Virus genome (UHGV): UHGV-1590541
Reading direction: 5' to 3' (one strand)
DNA length: 11,760 nt
Source: a virus
Under the pieces are notes generated by a model. That model searched no databases. It was given only the letters and a program-made list of their open reading frames with translations, and was not told where the DNA came from. The position numbers and the translations under genes are program-made. Positions 1-11,760 of this stretch are shown here, one piece after another. Positions within the stretch are counted from its first letter, which is position 1, and each line of letters begins with the position of its first letter.

Positions 1-516
1 GATTCTAACTTATCTTTGGCAGTCATTTTTACTGTTGTAGCGGGCGCAGGTAAGTCTTGCTGCTGTGGATTTTCTGTTAGTTGTTTACGAGAAGAAACAT
101 CGCCCCTGTTAGTTTGCTTCATGTTGATTACAGATGCGTTATGGGCATTATCAGCAGCAATTGACTGAAGTTTTACAAAAGTTTTTGAATCTGTTTTAGC
201 CAGAAGTAACCTATTTCCCGTAAACATTGCCTTAAAAGTGATAGTTTTTTTCGTCTTGTCCGCCGCACCAAGCAAACCTCCAATGACCAACCCTGCACCA
301 CCAAAGATTAATCCACCAAGCAAACCTGCGCCTGCCGCCTTACCTATACGGCTTTCCTCTTCACTATCCGCAAGTTCAATCGATAAAAGCTCTTCTTTCA
401 GATTTAATACAATATTTTCAGGAAAGCCTTGTTTTGGTTTTTTGGCAACCGAACCCCATGCTTGCCCACCCTTTAGGAAAACTTCCTGCGATAACCTGAA
501 TCCCTGCCATGTTCAT
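1..516 (-). CDS. Glycine-zipper membrane protein, partial (runs off window start), apparently frameshifted at an A6 tract
   Basis: ATG at 516 with strong SD (AAGGTGA, 5-6 nt upstream) opens a 32-codon frame (MNMAGIQVIAGSFPKGWASMGFGCQKTKTRLS) that stops at 418-420. The +1 frame is open from 512 through position 1 and encodes a GxxxG-rich segment (IGKAAGAGLLGGLIFGGAGLVIGGLLGAA) with no plausible start of its own. The frames meet at the homopolymer at 438-443. The plus-strand ORF 238-531 is its antisense shadow. Confidence 0.45.
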
Positions 517-600
517 CACCTTTTACATTAAAATTTCAGAACGCAGCATGATGCCGCCTTTGTCTTTTTTCTGATCCCATGGTAATTCAGCTGTTATTTT

Positions 601-1587
601 CTATTTAAGAATAAAACGGTATTTACTGTCAGGAGTGCTTTGCTGATCAAGTAGCAGTGAACGACATGGAGCAGTCAAAACCCGAGCATAACTACCATCA
701 GGGCTTATGTTAATGTAACAAACCTTGCCCTTAACACTATAATTTTCGGGGACGGATGCCTTTGCTGATACAGTAAATTTAAGGGTATGCCAGCCCGTTT
801 TTTGCTTGTAGCTTGAAACCGAATGGAAATCATCTGAGTACTTATTTAACCCTGGAAACATGCTGCGCAGTGCGGGGATGGAATCTTCTATTATTTTATC
901 GTTGGTTTTAATGTTAAAAACGCTGGTTTCAGTAGAAGCTACTGCTTTGGCATTTCCCCATTTACCAGCGAACACAATCATTCCCACGAAAAATATTGCT
1001 ACAAGAACTAACACTCCCCCCAACACTACTACATGAGGCTTCCGGCTTCTGGTTGGTACAGTTGCGACTGATTTTGCACCGCTTTCCGATGGAGGTGATA
1101 GAGTTTTACTCTCATCACGAATATTCAGCAGATCATCAAAATAACCAAACACAGCCTGCAACTGCTCTTTGTCTAGGCCTTTAAGATGGGTTGTACCGAA
1201 ATGCTTCAGACAGTATCTGTCACGGTCAAGACGATACCCAGGGTCAGTAAGCGCCATTATTTTGCTGACCAGAAGATTACAGTCCTTCATATTCTGGATC
1301 TGTTGTGCATATCTCTGAAGGATCTCAACCGCACCATGATAATCAGCCGCAGTCATTTCATTAACTGTTTTGGTATTAAGTTTCGTGTGGATCGTCATCC
1401 ATAGCTCGCGCTTACTTTCCCCCAGATCAACCAATTCATCCATCAATCTGTGTAAATCGCGTTTTTGCAGCAACGAAATTGGTTGCTGGGCCGAAGGAAG
1501 TATGTCAGCAGAATAGTTATGAATGGTAACATCACCGCTGACAACGTTACCCACATCCCCGTTAACTGTTTGCTTCTCTTTACTCAT
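601..1587 (-). CDS. Single-pass membrane protein of unknown function (328 aa), co-transcribed with the prophage repressor
   Basis: ATG at 1587 overlaps the repressor stop (ATGA, 1584-1587). One predicted TM helix at about aa 185-207 (VVVLGGVLVLVAIFFVGMIVFAG) preceded by basic RSRKPH, implying N-in topology. The C-terminal domain of about 120 aa carries two Cys. No family recognised by eye. Lower GC than the phage core. Confidence 0.8.
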   Translation of the reverse strand: MSKEKQTVNGDVGNVVSGDVTIHNYSADILPSAQQPISLLQKRDLHRLMDELVDLGESKRELWMTIHTKLNTKTVNEMTAADYHGAVEILQRYAQQIQNMKDCNLLVSKIMALTDPGYRLDRDRYCLKHFGTTHLKGLDKEQLQAVFGYFDDLLNIRDESKTLSPPSESGAKSVATVPTRSRKPHVVVLGGVLVLVAIFFVGMIVFAGKWGNAKAVASTETSVFNIKTNDKIIEDSIPALRSMFPGLNKYSDDFHSVSSYKQKTGWHTLKFTVSAKASVPENYSVKGKVCYINISPDGSYARVLTAPCRSLLLDQQSTPDSKYRFILK

Positions 1588-2009
1588 CTTCTCTTGGTAT
1601 TTTTGTTCATTATTCCACCTGTTCCTATGGTTACGTTACCTTTGATAACATTCCCCAGAACATCTCCATGAATAACCTGTTCCGCCCGTTCTCTGGAGGA
1701 GCCAGTAGTCAAGGCCGACAAAACTGAACCTTTGACCTGTAATGGTGCCTGCCGGTAGTGCTGCAGTAACTCCATTTCATCACGTGATAAAGTTATACCT
1801 GATGACTCCCCGGTAAGAATGAACTGTACATTGGCCCCAATTCTTGCAAAGGCTGCAAGTAACTCACCTCCGGGAACAGCAACCCCTCGTTCATATTTCC
1901 CCCACATTTCTCTTGAAACGCCACAAAGGGCTGCTACTTCAGCCTGCTTGAGTGATAACCGCGAACGCTCAGCTTTGAACCGCGACGCGCAAAGAGAATC
2001 AAAATTCAC
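1584..2009 (-). CDS. Prophage repressor, XRE/cI-type helix-turn-helix (start probably GTG at 2009; longest ORF reaches ATG 2045)
   Basis: HTH segment LSLKQAEVAALCGVSREMWGKYERG, typical of XRE-family repressors. Divergent from the Ner-like gene. GTG at 2009 has a GAGG SD 5 nt upstream, whereas ATG 2045 has none and would leave only 50 bp for divergent promoters. C-terminal tail has a GDV/GNV repeat. Confidence 0.8.
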   Translation of the reverse strand: MNFDSLCASRFKAERSRLSLKQAEVAALCGVSREMWGKYERGVAVPGGELLAAFARIGANVQFILTGESSGITLSRDEMELLQHYRQAPLQVKGSVLSALTTGSSRERAEQVIHGDVLGNVIKGNVTIGTGGIMNKNTKRR

Positions 2010-2095
2010 ATAAACCTCATTGACAATGAGAACAATAGTTCTCATAATCTATCACATATAAAACAAACATCATTGCATCAACAAAGGAGACAACA
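2010..2095. promoter_or_regulatory. Divergent immunity control region: candidate operators plus rightward sigma70 early promoter
   Basis: Perfect palindrome CTCATTG-A-CAATGAG (2016-2030) overlapping a second dyad GAGAAC-AATA-GTTCTC (2028-2043). TTGACA (2020-2025), 17-bp spacer, CATAAT (2043-2048) facing the Ner-like gene. CACATAT motif at 2053-2059. Confidence 0.5.
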
Positions 2096-2284
2096 ATGAC
2101 TTCCGAACAAGTTAAAAATCTCTTCCGTCAGCGTGGTATCACGTTTACCCGCTGGGCCGAAGAACACGGCTACAGCCGCAATGAGGTCTATCGTGTTCTC
2201 AATGGACAGACCAAAGCTCGTTACGGCAAAGCCCATGAAATTGCCGTAAAACTGGGATTAAAACCCACGTCAAATGCGGCATAA
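2096..2284 (+). CDS. ner: Ner/Cro-like small DNA-binding regulator (62 aa)
   Basis: AGGAG RBS 6 nt upstream of ATG. Position is divergent from the repressor at the head of the early operon. Sequence RWAEEHGYSRNEVYRVLNGQ...AHEIAVKLGL looks like a small HTH protein. Assignment to Ner rather than another Cro-like family rests mainly on synteny. Confidence 0.7.
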   Translation: MTSEQVKNLFRQRGITFTRWAEEHGYSRNEVYRVLNGQTKARYGKAHEIAVKLGLKPTSNAA

Positions 2285-2336
2285 ATTTTCCACATATGCA
2301 ACAGGTTATCACATATTGCAAAAATGGAAATGTGAC
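2285..2336. promoter_or_regulatory. Repeated CACATAT(G/T)GCAA-like motifs between ner and the next gene (candidate Ner or HTH-protein binding sites)
   Basis: CACATATGCAA at 2291-2301 and CACATATTGCAA at 2310-2321, sharing the CACATAT core with 2053-2059 upstream of ner. Each contains short palindromes (CATATG, TTGCAA). Confidence 0.3.
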
Positions 2337-2645
2337 ATGAGTAAAGTAAATATTTCCAGTTCTGGGACCCGCATCCTACGTGTACTCAAAGCTCTACGCG
2401 GTCATGCTCTGAACGGTGTTTCTAACGGTGAACTGGCATCAGCCCTGGGGGAGTCCCCGGCGAATATCAATCGAGCACTTAATACCCTTATTGAAGAGGG
2501 ACTGGCCATGAAATTAGAGAACGGACGTTTCGCACCGGGAATCCAGTTACTACAGATCGCCATGGCTCACAGTCACGAGATGGCGCGTGCACAGGATCGT
2601 ATTAACGAAATCAACCAACGAGTTATTTCAGGTAGTCGTTTGTAA
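2337..2645 (+). CDS. Small winged-HTH protein, IclR-N-terminal-like (about 102 aa; longest ORF starts at 2274)
   Basis: RILRVLKALRGHALNGVSNGELASALGESPANINRALNTLIEEGL resembles the IclR-type HTH domain; no effector domain follows. The ATG at 2337 lies downstream of the repeat-containing spacer, whereas ATG 2274 overlaps the ner stop. Confidence 0.65.
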   Translation: MSKVNISSSGTRILRVLKALRGHALNGVSNGELASALGESPANINRALNTLIEEGLAMKLENGRFAPGIQLLQIAMAHSHEMARAQDRINEINQRVISGSRL

Positions 2646-2655
2646 GGAGTAATCA

Positions 2656-3570
2656 ATGGGACGCACCAAATCACCCGTTAACACTGAACTGAATGTTGAG
2701 GTTCCGCTGTCAGATAACATCAATGTCAATTTGAACGCTATGACACAGCATCGCATGGAAATTATGCAGCAGTTTGGTGATGGACTGCCTTATGAACGTG
2801 ATCGCATTGTTCACGAAGCACGTTTTTATATGGCGCAGAGTGCTGAATCTATGCTGGAAGCGGGTAAGCGGCTGATCATCTTAAAAGAAAATGAGCCACA
2901 CGGTGATTTTACAAACATTTTAGAAAATGAACTCGGACTTGCACCACAAGTTGCTCGCCGCATGATGCAAGCCAGTATGAAGTTTTTGGGAGAAGGTGAT
3001 GAGCCAACAAAACGCTCAACGTTGAGCGTTTTGGGGAAAGCCAAACTGTACGACCTGATGGTTCTGGATAATGAAGAACTTGATGAATTGGCCGACGGCG
3101 GCACAGTTGCCGGCCTGACGCTTGACGACGTTGATCGCATGTCAGTACGTGAATTGCGTCAGGCCCTGCGCGAAGCGCGCGAAACCAACGCAGCACAACA
3201 GCGCGTACTCGCCGACAAAAATGAAAAAATAGATTCACTCTCCACCAGACTGGAGAAGAAATCCCGTATTCAGCCGCCTGAGCCTGATGAGGAGGTTAAG
3301 AAGCTGCGGGCGGAAGTAACAGCATTAGCGGTTGAGGCGGAATCTGCTATCGCCGTCCGACTGTCCAGCGCTTTTGAGACGCTGTGCGCATATTGTGCTG
3401 AAAACATGATTGATACCCCCAGAGACTTCATGGCAGGCCTGGTCTGTCAACTGGAAAGCACAGCGCGTAGCCTGCGCTCCACATTTGACCTGCCGGACGA
3501 GCCAACAGGCAATGCAGCGCCTTCATGGCTGACTGAGCCGACGCCACAGATTAACGGGCTGGAGGCATAA
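2656..3570 (+). CDS. Hypothetical early protein (304 aa), acidic with predicted coiled-coil segments
   Basis: AAGGAG RBS. Stop at 3570 lies 3 nt before the transposase start. No domain recognised with confidence (possibly a DUF3102-like phage protein, from memory only). Confidence 0.8.
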   Translation: MGRTKSPVNTELNVEVPLSDNINVNLNAMTQHRMEIMQQFGDGLPYERDRIVHEARFYMAQSAESMLEAGKRLIILKENEPHGDFTNILENELGLAPQVARRMMQASMKFLGEGDEPTKRSTLSVLGKAKLYDLMVLDNEELDELADGGTVAGLTLDDVDRMSVRELRQALREARETNAAQQRVLADKNEKIDSLSTRLEKKSRIQPPEPDEEVKKLRAEVTALAVEAESAIAVRLSSAFETLCAYCAENMIDTPRDFMAGLVCQLESTARSLRSTFDLPDEPTGNAAPSWLTEPTPQINGLEA

Positions 3571-3573
3571 CCA

Positions 3574-5343
3574 ATGAATGCTGCCCTGACTGAACGACTG
3601 GTTTATGTCGCCCGCGCGGCACGTGACGCGGGGCATGGTAAACGCGGTGCAATATACGACGCTGCCTGTGCTGAACTTGGCATGTCCCGCGCCACTCTGC
3701 TGCGCAGGCTGAAGGAGGTCTCTGTGACTGATAAACGCAAAAAACGCGCCGATGCCGGGCGCAGCGCCCTGACCCGCGACGAAGCCGCGCTGATATCTGC
3801 CACACTGCGTGAGGCCACCCGCAAGAACGGTAAGCGTCTCTATTCCATCGCAGATGCAGTGGAAACCCTGCGGGCTAACGGCTTTATCACCGCAGGCAGA
3901 ACAGATGAAACCACCAGTGAGTTTTTCCCGTTGTCTGAAGATGCCATCAGCCGTGCTCTGCGTAACTATGGCCTGCCCCCGGAACAACTGGATGCCCCTG
4001 CACCACATACCGAAGTGGCCAGTCTGCATCCCAATCATGTCTGGCAGATTGACGCCTCACTCTGCACGCTTTACTACCTGAGCAATGGACATAAAGGGCT
4101 GCAGGTGATGGACAGCGCGAAGTTCTACAAGAACAAGCCCGCTAACCTTGCCCGTATCGCCAGTGACCGCGTGTGGAGTTACGAGATTACCGACCATGCC
4201 AGCGGCTGGATTTACGTTGAGTATGTGACGGGCGCGGAATCAGGTGAGAACCTGTGTTCTGTGCTTATCAACGCCATGCAGGAGCGTGGCGGCGCAGACG
4301 TGCTGCACGGCGTGCCGAAAATACTCTATCTCGACCCCGGCTCGGCAAACACCGCGGGTATGACGAAAAACATGTGCCGCTCACTGGGCATCGACCTGAT
4401 AGCGCACAAGCCGCATAACGCCCGCGCCACCGGACAGGTGGAAAAGGCGCGTGACATTATCGAACGCAAGCTGGAGCCGGGTCTGAAGTTCCGGCCGGTT
4501 CACGGTCTGGAAGAACTCAACGCGCTGGCCGCGAAATGGCGCAGCCACTTTAACGCCACGGCTGTTCACAGCCGCCACGGTAAAACCCGCACGGATATCT
4601 GGCTGAAGATTACTGCTGAGCAGCTGAAAAAAGCGCCTTCCGTTGAGGTATGTCGTGAACTGGCTGTGGCGGCACCAGAACTCCGCAAAGTCACGCCAAA
4701 ACTTCGTGTCTCGTTCCGGGGCACTGAATTTGACGTATCAACGGTACCGGGCGTACTGGTTGGTGAAAAACTGATGATTACCCGTAACCCATGGCGCAGC
4801 GATGTGGCACAGGTGGTTCTGACCGGTGAGGACGGCCACGAGACGTTCTTCCTGGTCGAAGAGGTCAGAAAGAACGAGTTTGGCTTTGCTGAAGGCGCGG
4901 CGGTATTTGGCGAAAGTTACAAAGCCCTGCCGGAAACCCCGGCACAGATGGCGGCAAAAGAAACCGAAGCGCTGGTTACCGGTACAGACAACGCCGCAGA
5001 TGCAGCCGCCGCACGCAAGGCGAAGGCGCTGCCGTTCGGCGGGCGGCTTGACCCGTATAAACATATCGACGACACCACACTTCCGGCCTATATGCCGAAG
5101 CGTGGTCAGGCCTCTGACGTACGCGGGCCGCGCACTGAACAACGTCCCATGACTCATGTGGAGGCCGCGAAAGCCCTGCGCGATAAGTTCAGCGCCGACG
5201 GCCTTACCTGGACGCCGGAACATTACCGCCAGTTAACGGCACAGTACCCGGACGGCGTACCGGAAGCCGCACTGGATGAAGTCATGGCCACGCTGACCAC
5301 ACCGGCCCGCAGCAGTGTTATCAGCATTGTTAACGGCAACTGA
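3574..5343 (+). CDS. DDE transposase (retroviral-integrase/rve-like catalytic core), functional analogue of Mu A (589 aa)
   Basis: GGAGG RBS. N-terminal HTH-like region, then candidate catalytic residues in HVWQIDASL, KILYLDPGSANTA and GQVEKARDIIERKLE, matching D..D..E spacing of rve-type transposases. Followed directly by an AAA+ ATPase, as in transposable phages. Confidence 0.9.
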   Translation: MNAALTERLVYVARAARDAGHGKRGAIYDAACAELGMSRATLLRRLKEVSVTDKRKKRADAGRSALTRDEAALISATLREATRKNGKRLYSIADAVETLRANGFITAGRTDETTSEFFPLSEDAISRALRNYGLPPEQLDAPAPHTEVASLHPNHVWQIDASLCTLYYLSNGHKGLQVMDSAKFYKNKPANLARIASDRVWSYEITDHASGWIYVEYVTGAESGENLCSVLINAMQERGGADVLHGVPKILYLDPGSANTAGMTKNMCRSLGIDLIAHKPHNARATGQVEKARDIIERKLEPGLKFRPVHGLEELNALAAKWRSHFNATAVHSRHGKTRTDIWLKITAEQLKKAPSVEVCRELAVAAPELRKVTPKLRVSFRGTEFDVSTVPGVLVGEKLMITRNPWRSDVAQVVLTGEDGHETFFLVEEVRKNEFGFAEGAAVFGESYKALPETPAQMAAKETEALVTGTDNAADAAAARKAKALPFGGRLDPYKHIDDTTLPAYMPKRGQASDVRGPRTEQRPMTHVEAAKALRDKFSADGLTWTPEHYRQLTAQYPDGVPEAALDEVMATLTTPARSSVISIVNGN

Positions 5344-5353
5344 GGAGGGAAAC

Positions 5354-6520
5354 ATGCTGGTACTGAAGCAGCAACTGAAAGAGGCCCGTATTCCACAGGC
5401 GGTGGTGGCGAGAGCTGTCGATGTTTCTGAGGCCACGCTGGCCCAGATTGTGAATCATAACGCGTGGCCCCGCACCAGCCCCGGAGAAGTGCGCCGGCGT
5501 CTTGCGTCCTGGCTGGAAAGTCAGGGGATTGATACAACGAAGAGTTTTGATGCTGTACAGGGCGCGGCCACGCCCCGTACAGCGGGTACCACAGATAAAA
5601 CGAGCCTCAGTGAGGAAGAGAATATGTTACTCAAAAAACAGGTGTTATTTCCAGCAACCAAAAAAGCGTTTGGTCTTTTCCGTGACCCGTTCGCCGACGA
5701 AGCCATGCAGGGTTCTGATGATGTGTTCACCACCCCGGACATTCGCTACGTGCGTGAGGCGCTGTACCAGACAGCCCGTCATGGTGGGTTTATGGCCGTC
5801 ATCGGTGAGTCCGGTGCGGGTAAATCCACGCTGCGCCGCGACCTGACTGAACGTATCAACCGCGAGAATGCGCCGGTAATTGTTATCGAGCCATACATCA
5901 TCGCTATGGAAGACAACGATGTGAAAGGGAAAACCCTGAAGGCAGCAGCTATTGCCGAAGCCATTATCAGTACCATCGCACCACTGGAAAGCATCAGACG
6001 CAGTCAGGACGCCCGTTTTCGCCAGTTGCATCGCGTCCTGAAAGACAGCAGCCAGGCGGGGTTCAGCCACGTTCTGGTGATTGAGGAGGCCCACAGTCTG
6101 CCCATTCCGACACTGAAACACCTCAAACGCTTTTTTGAGCTGGAGTCCGGTTTCAAAAAACTGCTGTCCATCGTGCTGATTGGCCAGCCGGAACTGGCGA
6201 CAAAACTGTCTGAACGCAATATGGAAGTCCGTGAAGTCGTTCAGCGCTGTGAGGTGGTCGAACTTCTGCCTCTGGACAATAACCTTGAAGAATTTCTGAC
6301 GTTCAAACTGCAACGGGCCGGTAAACAGCTGACGGACATTATGGACGCCGGTGCAGTGGATGCCATACGTGCCCGCCTGAGCAATCCGGGAAGTCACCGT
6401 AAAAATATGGTCAGCCTGCTGTATCCGCTGGCCGTCAGTAACCTGGTAATAGCCGCCATGAATCTGGCCGCTGAAATCGGGGTTCCACAGGTCAACGCTG
6501 ACGTTGTCAAAGGGGTTTAA
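5354..6520 (+). CDS. AAA+ ATPase transposition helper protein (MuB / TniB-like), N-terminal HTH (longest ORF starts at 5315)
   Basis: Walker A GESGAGKST and Walker B-like VLVIEEAH. GAGGAGGG RBS immediately upstream of ATG 5354, 11 nt after the transposase stop. Confidence 0.9.
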   Translation: MLVLKQQLKEARIPQAVVARAVDVSEATLAQIVNHNAWPRTSPGEVRRRLASWLESQGIDTTKSFDAVQGAATPRTAGTTDKTSLSEEENMLLKKQVLFPATKKAFGLFRDPFADEAMQGSDDVFTTPDIRYVREALYQTARHGGFMAVIGESGAGKSTLRRDLTERINRENAPVIVIEPYIIAMEDNDVKGKTLKAAAIAEAIISTIAPLESIRRSQDARFRQLHRVLKDSSQAGFSHVLVIEEAHSLPIPTLKHLKRFFELESGFKKLLSIVLIGQPELATKLSERNMEVREVVQRCEVVELLPLDNNLEEFLTFKLQRAGKQLTDIMDAGAVDAIRARLSNPGSHRKNMVSLLYPLAVSNLVIAAMNLAAEIGVPQVNADVVKGV

Positions 6521-6522
6521 TA

Positions 6523-6792
6523 ATGAAATCCACCACAGGTATCAACCAGCAAATCAGCAAAGTGCAGTCAGCCATTATGGCGCTTAAGGCGACGAACACG
6601 GATGTACAAAGCATCACCATCAGGGGTAACAAACCTGTCATCCGCGTTTCCCGGAGTGCGCATTGCATGCGCATGCTTGAGCAGGGAAAGGCCTGTTATC
6701 TGTATACCGGACATGACCACAGGGGATATTTCCGTCAGGGCGTTTTCGAACTGCACGGCTGTCGCGTCGTGTGGCCGGAATCTTTGTGGTAA
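6523..6792 (+). CDS. Hypothetical small early protein (89 aa)
   Basis: ATG 2 nt after the B stop, preceded by AAGGGG. No recognisable domain. Confidence 0.65.
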   Translation: MKSTTGINQQISKVQSAIMALKATNTDVQSITIRGNKPVIRVSRSAHCMRMLEQGKACYLYTGHDHRGYFRQGVFELHGCRVVWPESLW

Positions 6793-6819
6793 TCAGCACA
6801 ACTGGAGAAATCATAAAAA

Positions 6820-7350
6820 ATGGCAAAAAGTACAAAAGGTGCAAAACGTATCAAGGCCGCAGCAGCACTCTGGGTGCCGGGGACACGTGAAGAGGTCATT
6901 GAGGGAATCAGACTACTCGGTGACGCACAACGTGAACTGGTCAGGGCTGAAACAGAAATGAATGACGCCATTGGCGATATCACCGCACGTTATGCCCCGC
7001 TCACCGAGAGCCTGAAAAAACGCATGGCCGAACTGCAGTCCGGTATTCAGACATGGTGTGAGGCACACCGTGATGAACTGACCGGCAACGGGAAGGTGAA
7101 GTTCGCTAACCTCACCACCGGCGAGGTGCAGTGGCGAAACCGTCCGCCATCAGTCAGTATCCGTGGGGCGGATAATGTTATTGAATTACTGAGACGTCTG
7201 GGGCTTGAGCGCTTTATTCGTGTAAAAGAGGAAATAAATAAAGACGCTATCCTGAATGAAAAAGAGGCCGTGAAAAATATTCCCGGTATTTCCATTAAAA
7301 GCGACATTGAGGATTTTTCAATAATTCCTTTTGAGCAGGATGTGCAGTAA
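6820..7350 (+). CDS. gam: Host-nuclease inhibitor protein Gam (Mu Gam family, Ku-like DNA-end-binding)
   Basis: 176 aa. Long collinear matches to Mu Gam as I remember it: MAK..KRIK.AAA..VP at the N-terminus, ETEMNDAI, WCEA.RDELT, RPPSVSIRG, LERLGL.RFIR.K.EINKEAIL and a C-terminal IEDFSIIPFEQ. Confidence 0.95.
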   Translation: MAKSTKGAKRIKAAAALWVPGTREEVIEGIRLLGDAQRELVRAETEMNDAIGDITARYAPLTESLKKRMAELQSGIQTWCEAHRDELTGNGKVKFANLTTGEVQWRNRPPSVSIRGADNVIELLRRLGLERFIRVKEEINKDAILNEKEAVKNIPGISIKSDIEDFSIIPFEQDVQ

Positions 7351-7447
7351 ACACACCACGTTAATTATTTAATAAAAACATTTTCTTTTTTATTCCGACG
7401 TCAGCGCCGCGGGCTTCTGCACGCCGGAAACAGAGGAGAATTAAATC

Positions 7448-7642
7448 ATGATATTTAAATGTATTCAGTGCGAGAGGGATATAACAGCCCTGCGTTTTCA
7501 CAGCGCCATCGCCGTGATGTCCGGTAAATACCACATCCCTGCGGTACGCGTCACCCTGGTCTGCCCGTACTGCAGCCAGCATTTTTCGGCAGACGTGCCC
7601 GTCATGGAATTCTCCCGCCCTGACAGGGAGGACTCGCAATGA
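7448..7642 (+). CDS. Small zinc-ribbon protein (64 aa, CxxC...CxxC)
   Basis: Cys pairs at C5/C8 and C39/C42. Its stop overlaps the next gene start (ATGA at 7639-7642). Preceded by a 97-bp AT-rich spacer after gam. Confidence 0.65.
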   Translation: MIFKCIQCERDITALRFHSAIAVMSGKYHIPAVRVTLVCPYCSQHFSADVPVMEFSRPDREDSQ

Positions 7643-7911
7643 TTACCCCACAGGAAGCACGACAGCGCACCCGAACCCTTGTTGAACACTATGTCAACGA
7701 GTGTGAATGCCGCGACCTCACCGATGTGAAGCACGTCCTGACGGCGCTAATCAGCATGACCGCTCAAGCCATTGTGGCGACCAACGGAAAGGCGGCTGCC
7801 CTGCAGGTACTGGTGAACACACTAACCCACACGGCAGCGCATGAGGTGCCGTACCGGATGGAAACCACTGCAGAAGGCGGCCTGCACATCACCGTCAGCC
7901 GGAAGCACTGA
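7639..7911 (+). CDS. Hypothetical small early protein (90 aa)
   Basis: Translationally coupled to the upstream gene (ATGA overlap). No recognisable domain. Confidence 0.6.
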   Translation: MITPQEARQRTRTLVEHYVNECECRDLTDVKHVLTALISMTAQAIVATNGKAAALQVLVNTLTHTAAHEVPYRMETTAEGGLHITVSRKH

Positions 7912-7920
7912 GGGCGCGGC

Positions 7921-8217
7921 ATGACACGGAACACCATACTCACCCGCACCGCCCTCTACCGTCTGGCCCTGCAGCGTTTCGGGCCGGACGCACAGGCCCT
8001 GAAACTGACAGAAGAGGCCGCTGAACTGGCGGCCAGTGCTGCCCGCAATCTGAACGGACAGGGCAGCGAAAGCGACCTCGCGGCAGAGCTGGCAGACGTG
8101 GAAATCATGACAGAGCAATTGCGCCTTCAGGGGATGGACCGGCTGATTGACTTCCACAAACAGAAAAAACTGGAACGTCTGGCTGCACGACTGGGCGTGA
8201 TTTACACGAACGAGTAA
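7921..8217 (+). CDS. MazG-like all-alpha nucleoside triphosphate pyrophosphohydrolase domain protein (98 aa), tentative
   Basis: GAGGG RBS. Contains EExxE (LTEEAAELA) followed about 30 residues later by ExxD (AELADVEIM), the metal-binding signature of MazG-like NTP-PPases. Confidence 0.55.
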   Translation: MTRNTILTRTALYRLALQRFGPDAQALKLTEEAAELAASAARNLNGQGSESDLAAELADVEIMTEQLRLQGMDRLIDFHKQKKLERLAARLGVIYTNE

Positions 8218-8231
8218 CCGGGAGGCATTCA

Positions 8232-8447
8232 ATGGCTGACATACTCAGGGAAATCACCGCATGGATACTGATTCTTACTGGCCTGGCGACATGCCTCAGT
8301 GCGGGGGCAGCCCTGGCTGCCCTGCTGATGCACATAACAACACAGTGGTTATGGGAAAAGCTTAAAGCAGCATACAGCCTGAAAGAGCTGTCCGACGCTG
8401 TCCGGGCATGGAAACGGCAGAAAAATACCGGAGATACAGAACAATGA
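8232..8447 (+). CDS. Small membrane protein (71 aa, one TM helix)
   Basis: GGGAGG RBS. Hydrophobic stretch ITAWILILTGLATCLSAGAALAALLM. Stop overlaps the next start (ATGA at 8444-8447). Confidence 0.6.
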   Translation: MADILREITAWILILTGLATCLSAGAALAALLMHITTQWLWEKLKAAYSLKELSDAVRAWKRQKNTGDTEQ

Positions 8448-9127
8448 CAGACCAGAATAAACACATTGAGAAACTGAAAAAGTTGCTGGCGCTGGCCGCA
8501 TCCGGCAACCCGCACGAGGCCGCTCTGGCACTGCGCCGAGCCCGTAAACTGATGGATGTTCACGGCATCACACATTCCGACATTGCTATGAGTGATATTG
8601 ATGAAACCATCAGTCACTACTGGCCGACAGGCAGTCTCCGTCCACCGCGCTACATGCTGGGCCTGATGAACATCATCCGCGAGGTATTTGGTGTTAACTC
8701 CATCATTCACCCCGGCACGCATCCGTCTGTGGGGTTCTACGGCAACCGGGAACGTGCGGCACTGGCTGCATACACCTGGGAAGTGCTGGCCCGTCAGCTG
8801 AAAAAGGCGCGTCAGCAGTATATCAGTGCACAGAACAAAAGAATAAAAACCGCCACCCGCACCAGCCGTGGAGACCAGTTTGCCGAAGGCTGGGTGCTGG
8901 CCGTTATCAGTGAAATACAGTCCTTTGCCCTGACCGATGATGAGCGTGAACTGATGCAGCAGTGGCTGGAACATAAATACCCGCAGACGCAAACCACCAG
9001 GGCGCGTAAACCGGGAAGAAGCCGCAATGGCGACGCCTCGCGCTATGCGGGGTTTCGTGAAGGGCAGAACGTCAGACTGCACCGCCCGGTCAGTGGGCAG
9101 GAACAACAGAAACTGGAGGCCAGATGA
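8444..9127 (+). CDS. DUF2786-like phage protein (227 aa; longest ORF starts at 8408)
   Basis: N-terminal KHIEKLKKLLALAASGNPHEAALALRRARKLM matches the DUF2786 signature as I remember it. ATG 8444 is coupled to the upstream stop. Confidence 0.7.
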   Translation: MTDQNKHIEKLKKLLALAASGNPHEAALALRRARKLMDVHGITHSDIAMSDIDETISHYWPTGSLRPPRYMLGLMNIIREVFGVNSIIHPGTHPSVGFYGNRERAALAAYTWEVLARQLKKARQQYISAQNKRIKTATRTSRGDQFAEGWVLAVISEIQSFALTDDERELMQQWLEHKYPQTQTTRARKPGRSRNGDASRYAGFREGQNVRLHRPVSGQEQQKLEAR

Positions 9128-9354
9128 TTACGCTATCAGGTAAAAGCCGGAAATTAAAAGCCTGCCGAATATCTGCCAGATACCTTTTTGCCCGCGCCTT
9201 TTTTAAGAACGTCAGGCCGGGGATCACAATTGGTGTTATTGCCGGACGCGAACAGGTTGAAAAATACATGTCAGGTGCATGGTGGAATAACGACCCTGTC
9301 ATTGCTGCCCGTAATATTCATATCGAATGGGGAGGTATTCAGAATGACTACTGA
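9124..9354 (+). CDS. Hypothetical small early protein (76 aa)
   Basis: ATG overlaps the upstream stop (ATGA at 9124-9127). No recognisable domain. Confidence 0.5.
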   Translation: MITLSGKSRKLKACRISARYLFARAFFKNVRPGITIGVIAGREQVEKYMSGAWWNNDPVIAARNIHIEWGGIQNDY

Positions 9355-9550
9355 AACCATTGTCTGTTTTCTTTTCTGGTATATGTACGCAGGATCATGC
9401 AGCGCAAGACTTCATCGTTCCCTGGGCTATGGCAGGCACTACGACACCGCGCATTACATCCTGTACATGACCGCCGTCATGTTGTTCTGGCCAGTCACCC
9501 TGCCAGCTGCAACCGACATTGTTGCCGACAGACTGAAAAAAAGGAGATGA
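9344..9550 (+). CDS. Small hydrophobic/membrane protein (68 aa); internal start of the longer ORF 9188-9550
   Basis: GGGGAGG RBS 7 nt upstream of ATG 9344. Two hydrophobic segments (TIVCFLFWYMYAG and ILYMTAVMLFWPVTLPAA). Stop lies 1 nt before the gemA-like start. Confidence 0.5.
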   Translation: MTTETIVCFLFWYMYAGSCSARLHRSLGYGRHYDTAHYILYMTAVMLFWPVTLPAATDIVADRLKKRR

Positions 9551-9551
9551 T

Positions 9552-10001
9552 ATGCAGAAAAAACGCCTGATACAGCTTATCCATATTGCCCGTAATGAAC
9601 TGGGTATGGATGAAGACACCTACCGCCAGATGTTACAGGGGCTGACCGGTAAAGCCTCAACCAAAGGAATGGATACCACACAACTAAACTGCGTGCTGGA
9701 ATCCATGAAAAAGAAAGGCTTTCGCGTTAAACCAGCCAGAAAAGCCAGCTCCGGTTTACCGCTGGATAACCATCCGCAGTCCAGGAAAATTCGTGCGCTA
9801 TGGCTTGAAATGGCTGCTGCCGGCATTGTTCGTGACCGTTCAGAAAATGCATTAGCGAGGTGGATCAAGCGGGAAACGGGCATCAGCGCCCTGCGCTGGC
9901 TCAGTACTGAACAGGCAAGCAGTGTTATTGAGAAACTGAAGAAGTGGCAGCGCAGAGCTGCGGGAGTCAAACATGAGCGACCTGAATCAGTTTCGAAGTA
10001 A
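9552..10001 (+). CDS. gemA: GemA-like regulatory protein (Mu gp16 family, DUF1018)
   Basis: AGGAG RBS. LIQLIHIARNELGMDEDTYRQML..LTGKAS and RKIRALWLEMAAAGIV resemble the Mu gp16/GemA family. Sits immediately upstream of and overlapping mor, as in Mu. Confidence 0.8.
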   Translation: MQKKRLIQLIHIARNELGMDEDTYRQMLQGLTGKASTKGMDTTQLNCVLESMKKKGFRVKPARKASSGLPLDNHPQSRKIRALWLEMAAAGIVRDRSENALARWIKRETGISALRWLSTEQASSVIEKLKKWQRRAAGVKHERPESVSK

Positions 10002-10362
10002 GGGGCCGGAACTCCTGGTGGAACTGGCACAGCATACCTCTGAGACCGTTCGCGAGATTATTGATATTGAGCCCGAAGTTGCCGACCAGATTGGTCAGGC
10101 CGTCGCGAACCGAATGATGCAGGTCTGGGGCGGGCAAAACGTTTATTTCCCGATGGGCATGGTATGGAAGGTCAGTCAGCGCGACCGGGAAATCTTCAGG
10201 GAGTTTAACGGACGCAACCACCACGAACTGGCCCGCAAATTTGGTGTTTCGCTTCAGTGGGTCTACAGCGTGGTTAAGCGGGTAAGAAAAGAAGAACTGG
10301 ATCGGATGCAGGGCAAGCTATTTGCTGATGAACCCGATGCAGATACGGAGAAAAAAGAGTAA
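9973..10362 (+). CDS. mor: Mor-family transcription activator (middle operon regulator)
   Basis: 129 aa, same length as Mu Mor. C-terminal half (VWGGQNVYFPMG...FREFNGRNHHELARKFGVSLQWVYSVVKRVRK) aligns closely with the Mu Mor HTH region as I remember it. Confidence 0.9.
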   Translation: MSDLNQFRSKGPELLVELAQHTSETVREIIDIEPEVADQIGQAVANRMMQVWGGQNVYFPMGMVWKVSQRDREIFREFNGRNHHELARKFGVSLQWVYSVVKRVRKEELDRMQGKLFADEPDADTEKKE

Positions 10363-10391
10363 TATCTGCAATCAGGCTGGCGCGAGTTCTG

Positions 10392-10448
<57 letters not shown>

Positions 10449-10449
10449 A

Positions 10450-10525
<76 letters not shown>

Positions 10526-10776
10526 CCAAGTCCCCGTGTCAAAAAGTCATCTGTGTAAGATTCCAATCATACATATGGACTCAGATTGGCCTGTGTCCGT
10601 GCTTCCTAAAGGAATTCACAGATTCAGTCCTAATCATGATGACACATTAGCGAAGCTATGCCATGTCAGATACAGGTTCACTTAGTCGCGGTCTTACCAG
10701 TCTGGCCTTTAATACTCGTTAATCCTTAGCAATCAGTAGGTTGGTTTTATTTTTCAACAGACAGAAGTAGTTTCAT

Positions 10777-11760
10777 TTACATATATGCAGCTCCCATCAC
10801 TTCTTCTGGTGAAATCTCTTTATCGTTGGTTAGCAATACCCAGAGCACTCTGGCATTTTTGTTGTTCAGCGCTACGGTGGCAACATTTTTATTCCGCCGC
10901 GAGACTGGTCTGCCCAGCCAGCTTTCCTGGACCTGTCTGCCCTTTCTGGCGTTTGACACTGTCTTCGCACCATGGAACAGTAGCGTTCTGATATAGACAT
11001 CGTCCCGTTTACTGATAGACCCCAGCGTGTTTTTACCTACGCTGAAGCACTGTCGGGGAACCAGTCCAAGCCATGCAGCAAGCTGACGCCGGTTTTTGAA
11101 GCCGATACTACCCGGTGCTGACAATTGCAGTGGTGGTAAGAATAGCAATCCCCGAAATGGTGGCAATTTTCCTGCACAGTTCGTCGTTCCCGACGTGTTC
11201 GTTGCTAACGGCTTCTATGGTTTCAATGTGTACGCTCAGTTGTTTCACATTTTCATTAGAGATAGGACGACAGCTGTCTGAACGGCATTGTTAAACAGTT
11301 TTCCGCGTCTTCAAGCAGGGCAGGGACATGACGACTGATCGCTACAGTGTCGGGCGGGAGAACGATGCCAAATTCAGCCAGTAATCCTCTGATCTGGTTT
11401 ATCTGCGCAGTCCTTGATTTAACAAACCCCGTCAGGGCACGATGAAAAGACAGTAATGACTACTGCTCAGGCGTCTTGATGCTGACAAACCGCATATTAG
11501 GTCGGGTAACGGCTTCACAGATGGCCTCGGCAGCAGCCATATCATTCTTGTTTGTTTTCACATATGGCTTTACAAATCGCGGGCATTAGTCTGACATTAT
11601 GCCCCTAAGTAGACAGCATTCTCACTAATGACGCGCTCCGGCGCAGACCTCCATCCCAATCCGACAGGAAGACATATTCGCGAAGAATACGGGCATCAGG
11701 GAACGTTTAATCCGTTTTCTGAGCTTAGATTTTTCTGTTCCTACCCAGACCGTGGATTTG
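10777..11760 (-). pseudogene. IS110-family (DEDD) transposase, decayed: multiple in-frame stops and frameshifts; N-terminus beyond window end
   Basis: Minus-strand translation gives segments in three frames that read collinearly like an IS110-family transposase: FFANMSSCRIGMEVCAGARH, PYVKTNKNDMAAAEAICEAVTRPNMRFVSIKTPEQ, IRGLLAEFGIV, ISGIAILTTTAIV, RRQLAAWLGLVPRQ...ISKRDDVYIRTLLFHGAKTV, VATVALNNKNARVLW. In-frame stops at 11622-11627 (TAG TGA), 11586-11588 (TAA) and 11460-11462 (TAG); frame changes near 11256 and near 11110-11125. Confidence 0.8.

Follow-up and report, generated by a model that had tools for sequence, protein, structure and literature searches.

Known recoding sites include the +1 shift of prfB at CUU UGA and the −1 shift of dnaX at A AAA AAG, and among prophages lambda rexAB and P22 sieB are repressor-adjacent, lysogen-expressed accessory membrane proteins. 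The locus described here touches on both. It lies in a viral stretch of 11,760 nucleotides (the window, here always the whole stretch), positions 1-10524 of which make up one end of a transposable, Mu-like prophage with 99.9% identity to those of many E. coli, and its last leftward gene, a member of the PH_gly_zipper family (PF27000), is split between two frames with a run of six A in the overlap. With a probability of about 0.85 on the sequence comparisons set out below, the window allele of this prophage gene, 193 codons long when intact, is a pseudogene that would have arisen through a recent and private 11-nt frameshift deletion. What we have is an ordinary private frameshift-deletion pseudogene, in a family that is already known and functionally uncharacterised.

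On the minus strand, one frame takes in GTG 519, ATG 516 and ATG 510 and is closed by TGA 420-418, which gives a short ORF of 32 codons when counted from ATG 516 and of 30 from ATG 510. An earlier note on this DNA had begun the short frame at ATG 516, and its 32 codons ending at 418-420 are confirmed by the ORF reading; its choice of ATG 516 as the supported start has to be abandoned, since RefSeq and the orthologues give ATG 510, 6 nt after the Shine-Dalgarno motif. Of the three candidate starts, the orthologues, which read ...GGAGACCAACATG, keep ATG 510 alone, and the Met1 that matches it is invariant across the family alignment. Judging from annotation and conservation, the true start is ATG 510 and not 516, and with this start the truncated ORF is therefore one of 30 codons. 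The +1 frame opens at 512 and runs for 170 codons up to the window edge with no stop; ATG, GTG and TTG are absent from its first 63 codons, the earliest being TTG 323 (codon 64), within the glycine zipper. The same note had described this second frame as open to the edge, encoding the zipper and missing a start of its own, and all of this holds. Intact copies continue past the window edge with 21 further codons and a terminator hairpin; in line with that position, a scan of window 1-2400 for intrinsic terminators returned none. Within the frame overlap the A6 tract is read as CAA AAA ACC in one frame and as AAA AAA CCA in the other; as no other homopolymer lies in the overlap, the tract gives the impression of being the switch point. 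The coordinates of these features are collected in Table 1.

Table 1. Coordinates in the window of the split gene, its signals and its upstream neighbours
Feature	Position	Strand	Remarks
Truncated 5' ORF	418..510	-	ATG 510 to TGA 420-418, 30 codons: MAGIQVIAGSFPKGWASMGFG, then out-of-frame CQKTKTRLS and stop; codons 1-21 native
Shine-Dalgarno AAGGTG	517..522	-	AAGGAG in orthologues
Deletion junction	447..449	-	11 nt of every intact copy missing
A6 tract (T6 on plus strand)	438..443	-	Lys27-Lys28 codons AAA AAA; unchanged, not the lesion
Stranded 3' gene part, +1 frame	1..446	-	Ala26 to Glu172 of the 193-aa protein; reaches the window edge
Glycine-zipper segment GAGLLGGLIFGGAGLVIGGLLG	267..332	-	Residues G64-G85
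328-aa membrane protein gene, phrog_10002 (function unknown)	601..1587	-	Between repressor and broken gene
HTH repressor gene of the prophage	1584..2045	-	First of the leftward gene string closed by the broken gene

The lesion itself became apparent on comparison with other genomes. With window 1-1600 as megablast query, the region was found to be covered in 97 complete E. coli genomes, and among the matches listed 1,611 record bases align to 1,600 window bases; the alignment with strain AR_0015 contains one 11-nt gap, with A6 identical on both sides. Intact copies read ...GGGGTTCGG TACCATCGTGT TTGCCAAAAAACC..., and TACCATCGTGT is missing from the window between 449 and 448, 5 nt upstream of A6. 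Given a 1-nt T ambiguity, the missing bases may equally be written as ACCATCGTGTT; they correspond to nt 63-73 or 64-74 of the intact CDS, so that Thr22-Ile23-Val24 and part of Phe25 are lost and the frame is shifted. With the 11 nt restored, the gene is a single 193-codon ORF, WP_000907412.1 (listed in RefSeq as a hypothetical protein), with 100% identity across the part that lies within the window, the non-repeat deletion being the sole difference from the intact gene. A 191-nt junction query gave the same picture: all 97 genomes matched, each with the 11-nt gap and none gap-free, and 95 of them are identical over the 202-nt region, the other two having one substitution and an intact 582-nt CDS. 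An intact CDS is annotated in every one of the 97 complete E. coli genomes that carry the locus, and the intact junction is also present in seven IMG/VR contigs, six with the full 193-codon ORF and one cut by the locus end. Exact searches for the deleted-junction 36-mer in genome, metagenome and viral contig collections gave 0 matches in each, and therefore no independent occurrence of the allele. When a repeat or palindrome that might explain the deletion was sought, just 1 nt of microhomology (T) was found, and slipped-strand deletion between repeats was rejected on that account.

The consequences for the gene can be read from the sequence. Eleven nt of non-repetitive sequence over codons 22-25 are lost, with 1 nt of microhomology at the junction, and because of this loss translation from ATG 510 leaves the native frame after Gly21 and stops at TGA 420-418. 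For the remaining 172 codons there is no usable start before the glycine zipper is reached; this stranded part holds the zipper insert, most of the sandwich predicted to be PH-like, and the membrane anchor at the C-terminus. We infer that the deletion is real, very recent and private to this lysogen, and that the protein would not be made, N-terminally truncated fragments from the internal TTG 323 or ATG 227 being possible in principle.

These results modify the initial view of the locus, which had been of one gene in two frames with a startless 3' part, broken at A6. The single gene, the startless part and the overlap of both readings at A6 all stand; the site and the mechanism do not, the cause being the 11-nt deletion 5 nt upstream of the tract. 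Slippage at A6, whether fixed as a pseudogene, acting as a phase-variable switch or reduced to a homopolymer miscall, has in its favour that a change from A6 to A5 would join both frames in the window allele and some error-prone public assemblies do miscall A6 as A5. It is nevertheless very improbable: the tract is as long in the window as in all intact copies, those of the orthologues at 72% identity among them, and only the upstream deletion sets the window allele apart. Of the explanations offered by the earlier note, the slippage-generated pseudogene is thus right as to the pseudogene and wrong as to slippage; a phase-variable switch does not fit a tract that is invariant within E. coli and across genera, with no length polymorphism seen among the 97 complete genomes; and a homopolymer sequencing error at A6 is contradicted by a tract unchanged with respect to the 97 genomes, the IMG/VR contigs and the orthologues. 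Moreover, six A's are short for a contingency tract and, by a rough estimate, have about the usual look of a Lys-Lys pair given the E. coli preference for AAA. A5 calls are limited to assemblies with several other homopolymer contractions, as can be followed in broken alleles of the same gene, L020-L025 (GCA_0532915xx/6xx, GCA_0396152xx and Logan ERR10498802). These differ from the intact gene by several homopolymer contractions only (A6 to A5, A7 to A6, T7 to T5 or T4, plus one inserted A), A6 being called A5 in L020-L023 and L025, and they most likely reflect long-read consensus error. Gene callers yield fragments of 101-126 aa from these alleles. One such fragment, a 126-aa call from TTG 323 (P0010), was considered as a second copy of the window allele and discarded: its DNA (L025) has homopolymer contractions, not the 11-nt gap.

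A related question is whether the 11-nt gap in the window is itself an assembly or consensus artefact, the bases being present in the real genome and dropped in assembly or polishing. The uniqueness of the allele, with no occurrence among the 97 complete E. coli genomes or in the genome, metagenome and viral contig collections, speaks for such an origin. On the other hand, the gap lies outside any homopolymer or repeat, and an 11-nt loss in non-repetitive sequence would not be typical of sequencing error. A comparison of the window with its nearest relative, the Eco889 prophage, over 10,524 nt gave this gap and two substitutions (3977 and 4504) as the only differences, with no other indel and none in homopolymers, whereas the artefactual long-read alleles of the same gene show several contracted homopolymers within 600 nt. 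An artefact is accordingly regarded as unlikely, and the gap very probably represents a true mutation.

The direction of the change was established with orthologues of about 72% amino acid identity from Intestinirhabdus alba (L010) and Citrobacter (L015), both of which are single-frame through the site. There they carry synonymous changes (GGC ACT ATT GTC TTC GGT AAA AAA CCT) and keep A6 as Lys27-Lys28. Between E. coli and I. alba, dN/dS (Nei-Gojobori) is 0.11 overall and 0.035 for codons 1-125, and the lost Thr-Ile-Val-Phe is part of a conserved beta-strand in a family of 196 representative clusters at E ≤ 0.001. Because the outgroups are single-frame, the gene is under purifying selection and the lost strand is conserved, the window allele is the derived one, that is, a deletion. 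The opposite polarity, with the window ancestral and an 11-nt insertion gained by the other genomes, can formally appeal to the symmetry of the alignment and to nothing more; the G-TIVF-A/G residues stand in one frame in the distant orthologues and throughout the PH_gly_zipper family, and selection on the intact frame is strong. The outgroup comparison refutes the window as ancestral state, and its probability is practically negligible. Comparison with orthologues for an intact single frame, a check that the earlier note had itself proposed, was thus decisive, for it found the single frame and identified the deletion.

The same comparison bears on recoding, the last of the explanations initially considered. 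A +1 shift, either of tRNA-Lys from AAA to AAA at AAA-A or of tRNA-Leu at CUU-U before UCC UGA, or else transcriptional slippage, would give some near-full-length protein, and both AAA-A and CUU-U do in theory permit +1 re-pairing in the overlap. The two-frame arrangement is, nonetheless, absent from all relatives examined, so no recoding signal can have evolved. Inspection of 418-450 revealed no SD-like stimulator at prfB-like spacing and, for AAA-A, no hungry, rare or stop codon in the A site. A rescued product, moreover, would still be without the residues of the conserved strand (GFG-CQK-PKQ versus GFG-TIVFAKK-PKQ). Recoding as the explanation of the two frames is therefore highly improbable.

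Turning to the intact protein, PF27000 matches, precomputed and marked weak, are found on P0002, which is 97% identical to the intact gene, and on P0003, P0008, P0009 and P0012, and the assignment of the window gene to this family rests on such matches of near-identical and 71%-identical relatives. The protein also matches phrog_12025 over residues 1-193 of 193, the PHROGs search returning families of unknown function only. Nothing significant was obtained against NCBIfam, the PADLOC profiles and a Pfam set that lacks the PF27000 model; a literature search by accession gave nothing, and one of the BcepMu and E. coli literature gave nothing on the gene. The predicted fold is a PH-like beta-sandwich with a C-terminal helix cap, in which the glycine zipper would be inserted between strands 5 and 6; the Gly columns of the zipper are invariant or nearly so across 40-47 relatives. 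Compared with the family, where most relatives are stand-alone domains of about 117 aa, the WP_000907412.1 subfamily has a C-terminal transmembrane tail, and a SHOCT tail occurs in 6 of 40 aligned relatives. In the predicted topology, a tail anchor together with a re-entrant loop formed by the glycine zipper would tether a cytoplasmic PH-like domain to the membrane, and the intact protein may tentatively be seen as a lysogen-expressed inner-membrane accessory protein of the moron type. Some alleles, represented by P0006 (182 aa) and P0007 (177 aa), have in-frame deletions in the zipper (at the equivalent of window 267-332), with AGAGLLGGLIFGGAGLVIGGLLGAA shortened to AGAGLVIGGLLGAA or AGAGLLGAA, which is consistent with recombination between short GGT TTG CTT GGT repeats.

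The surroundings of the gene are those of a transposable prophage. Window 2044-10525 is 96.6% identical to Escherichia phage PhiKM (PQ738613.1), a phage classified in Bcepmuvirus, the match covering 71% of the window, and the prophage is of the Bcepmuvirus type in nucleotide sequence and gene order; window 1-1600 found no megablast match in the phage collection, and it is only the early region that matches phage records. Annotated genes comprise the repressor on the minus strand and, on the plus strand, a Ner-like gene, an HTH gene, DUF3102, the DDE transposase, the ExeA-like ATPase, Gam, gp16 and Mor. The leftward string runs from the repressor through the 328-aa membrane protein to the 193-aa protein broken here, beyond which come an oppositely oriented gene and then a holin/SLT lysis cassette. 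In E. coli, Citrobacter and Intestinirhabdus prophages alike the gene is on the repressor strand and downstream of the repressor, and in those of Citrobacter the orthologue directly follows a CI-type repressor. From sequence comparison, the slot of the broken gene is variable cargo space. In E. coli 2014C-3075 (L002, 2531-2620), only the first 27 codons of the gene are left, the 11 nt included (compare window 443-510); similarity stops after TTGCCA, exactly where A6 begins, with other cargo genes following, which marks a mosaic breakpoint.

Several other features of the region were recorded along the way. The genes of the repressor and of the 328-aa protein overlap by ATGA, and the C-terminus of the former (VIHGDVLGNVIKGNVTIGTGG) and the N-terminus of the latter (VNGDVGNVVSGDVTIHNY) have in common a GDVxGNVxxGxVTI-like motif; the 328-aa protein has, besides its phrog_10002 match, a weak precomputed Pfam match to PF27202 (Flk_N). 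On the plus strand, window 2020-2048 contains a near-consensus sigma-70 promoter-like site (TTGACA, a 17-nt spacer and CATAAT, 11/12 matches), which lies a short way before the Ner-like gene (2096-2284), overlaps the start of the divergent repressor gene and probably marks the early promoter/operator region. The prophage extends to about 10524. Its flank (10525-11760) consists of a transposase element of the IS110 family (RNA-guided), copies of which occur at 99.9% identity in thousands of E. coli genomes. No complete genome shares the prophage-flank junction (best cover 90%), and the prophage therefore sits at a private site.

Both substitutions that distinguish the window from the Eco889 prophage fall in the transposase CDS (3574-5343, plus strand); both are non-synonymous and private among the comparators covering them (Pro135 versus His and Gly311 versus Ser), so that all three private differences, the deletion included, alter proteins. 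In a reading that we consider quite improbable, the deletion was an adaptive loss of a costly repressor-linked membrane protein, for instance a PH_gly_zipper exclusion or abortive-infection factor, simultaneous with the transposase changes H135P and S311G, and the three differences could represent the first steps of prophage domestication. Weaker still than adaptive loss is the idea that low-level +1 slippage at AAA-A supplies some near-full-length protein to the lysogen. Loss of the protein would probably deprive the host of nothing essential.

The biological weight of the case is small, as it concerns one lysogen that lacks one accessory prophage gene through a small deletion. What is gained is, in the first place, a correct annotation, with the right lesion and the start at ATG 510 for a pseudogene of the PH_gly_zipper family, and one candidate site of recoding or phase variation can be struck off the list. 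There is also a lesson in it, namely that a gene need not be broken at the one homopolymer that its frame overlap contains, and genuine homopolymer artefacts in the same gene are now exemplified by L020-L025. Of wider interest is that, in Bcepmuvirus prophages from several genera of enterobacteria, PH_gly_zipper proteins are conserved in the position immediately following the repressor.

Altogether, the locus can be set against the systems that it resembles. Programmed frameshifting as in prfB and dnaX, or transcriptional slippage on A-runs, is superficially alike in having overlapping frames with an A-run and CUU-U; the split in the window, in contrast, is not conserved, shows no stimulatory element on inspection, and has an overlap that would stem from a one-off deletion. 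Homopolymer contingency loci are alike in placing a homopolymer near the 5' end of a gene for a surface or membrane protein, but the tract here is just 6 nt long and does not vary among 97 genomes or between genera, and the change of frame lies elsewhere. The PF27000 relatives have an intact ORF, whereas that of the window gene is split by a frameshift deletion. As for the prophage, PhiKM shares the layout, with Mor, gp16/GemA, Gam, the ExeA-like ATPase, the DDE transposase and the Ner-like gene on one strand, the repressor side and the holin/SLT cassette, and differs in that its repressor-to-lysis slot holds a Dam methylase and other cargo. The intact protein is unlike known defence proteins in sequence and profile similarity (PADLOC: none), and resembles lambda rexAB and P22 sieB in position and in predicted membrane association, a likeness that may be taken as a functional analogy only.
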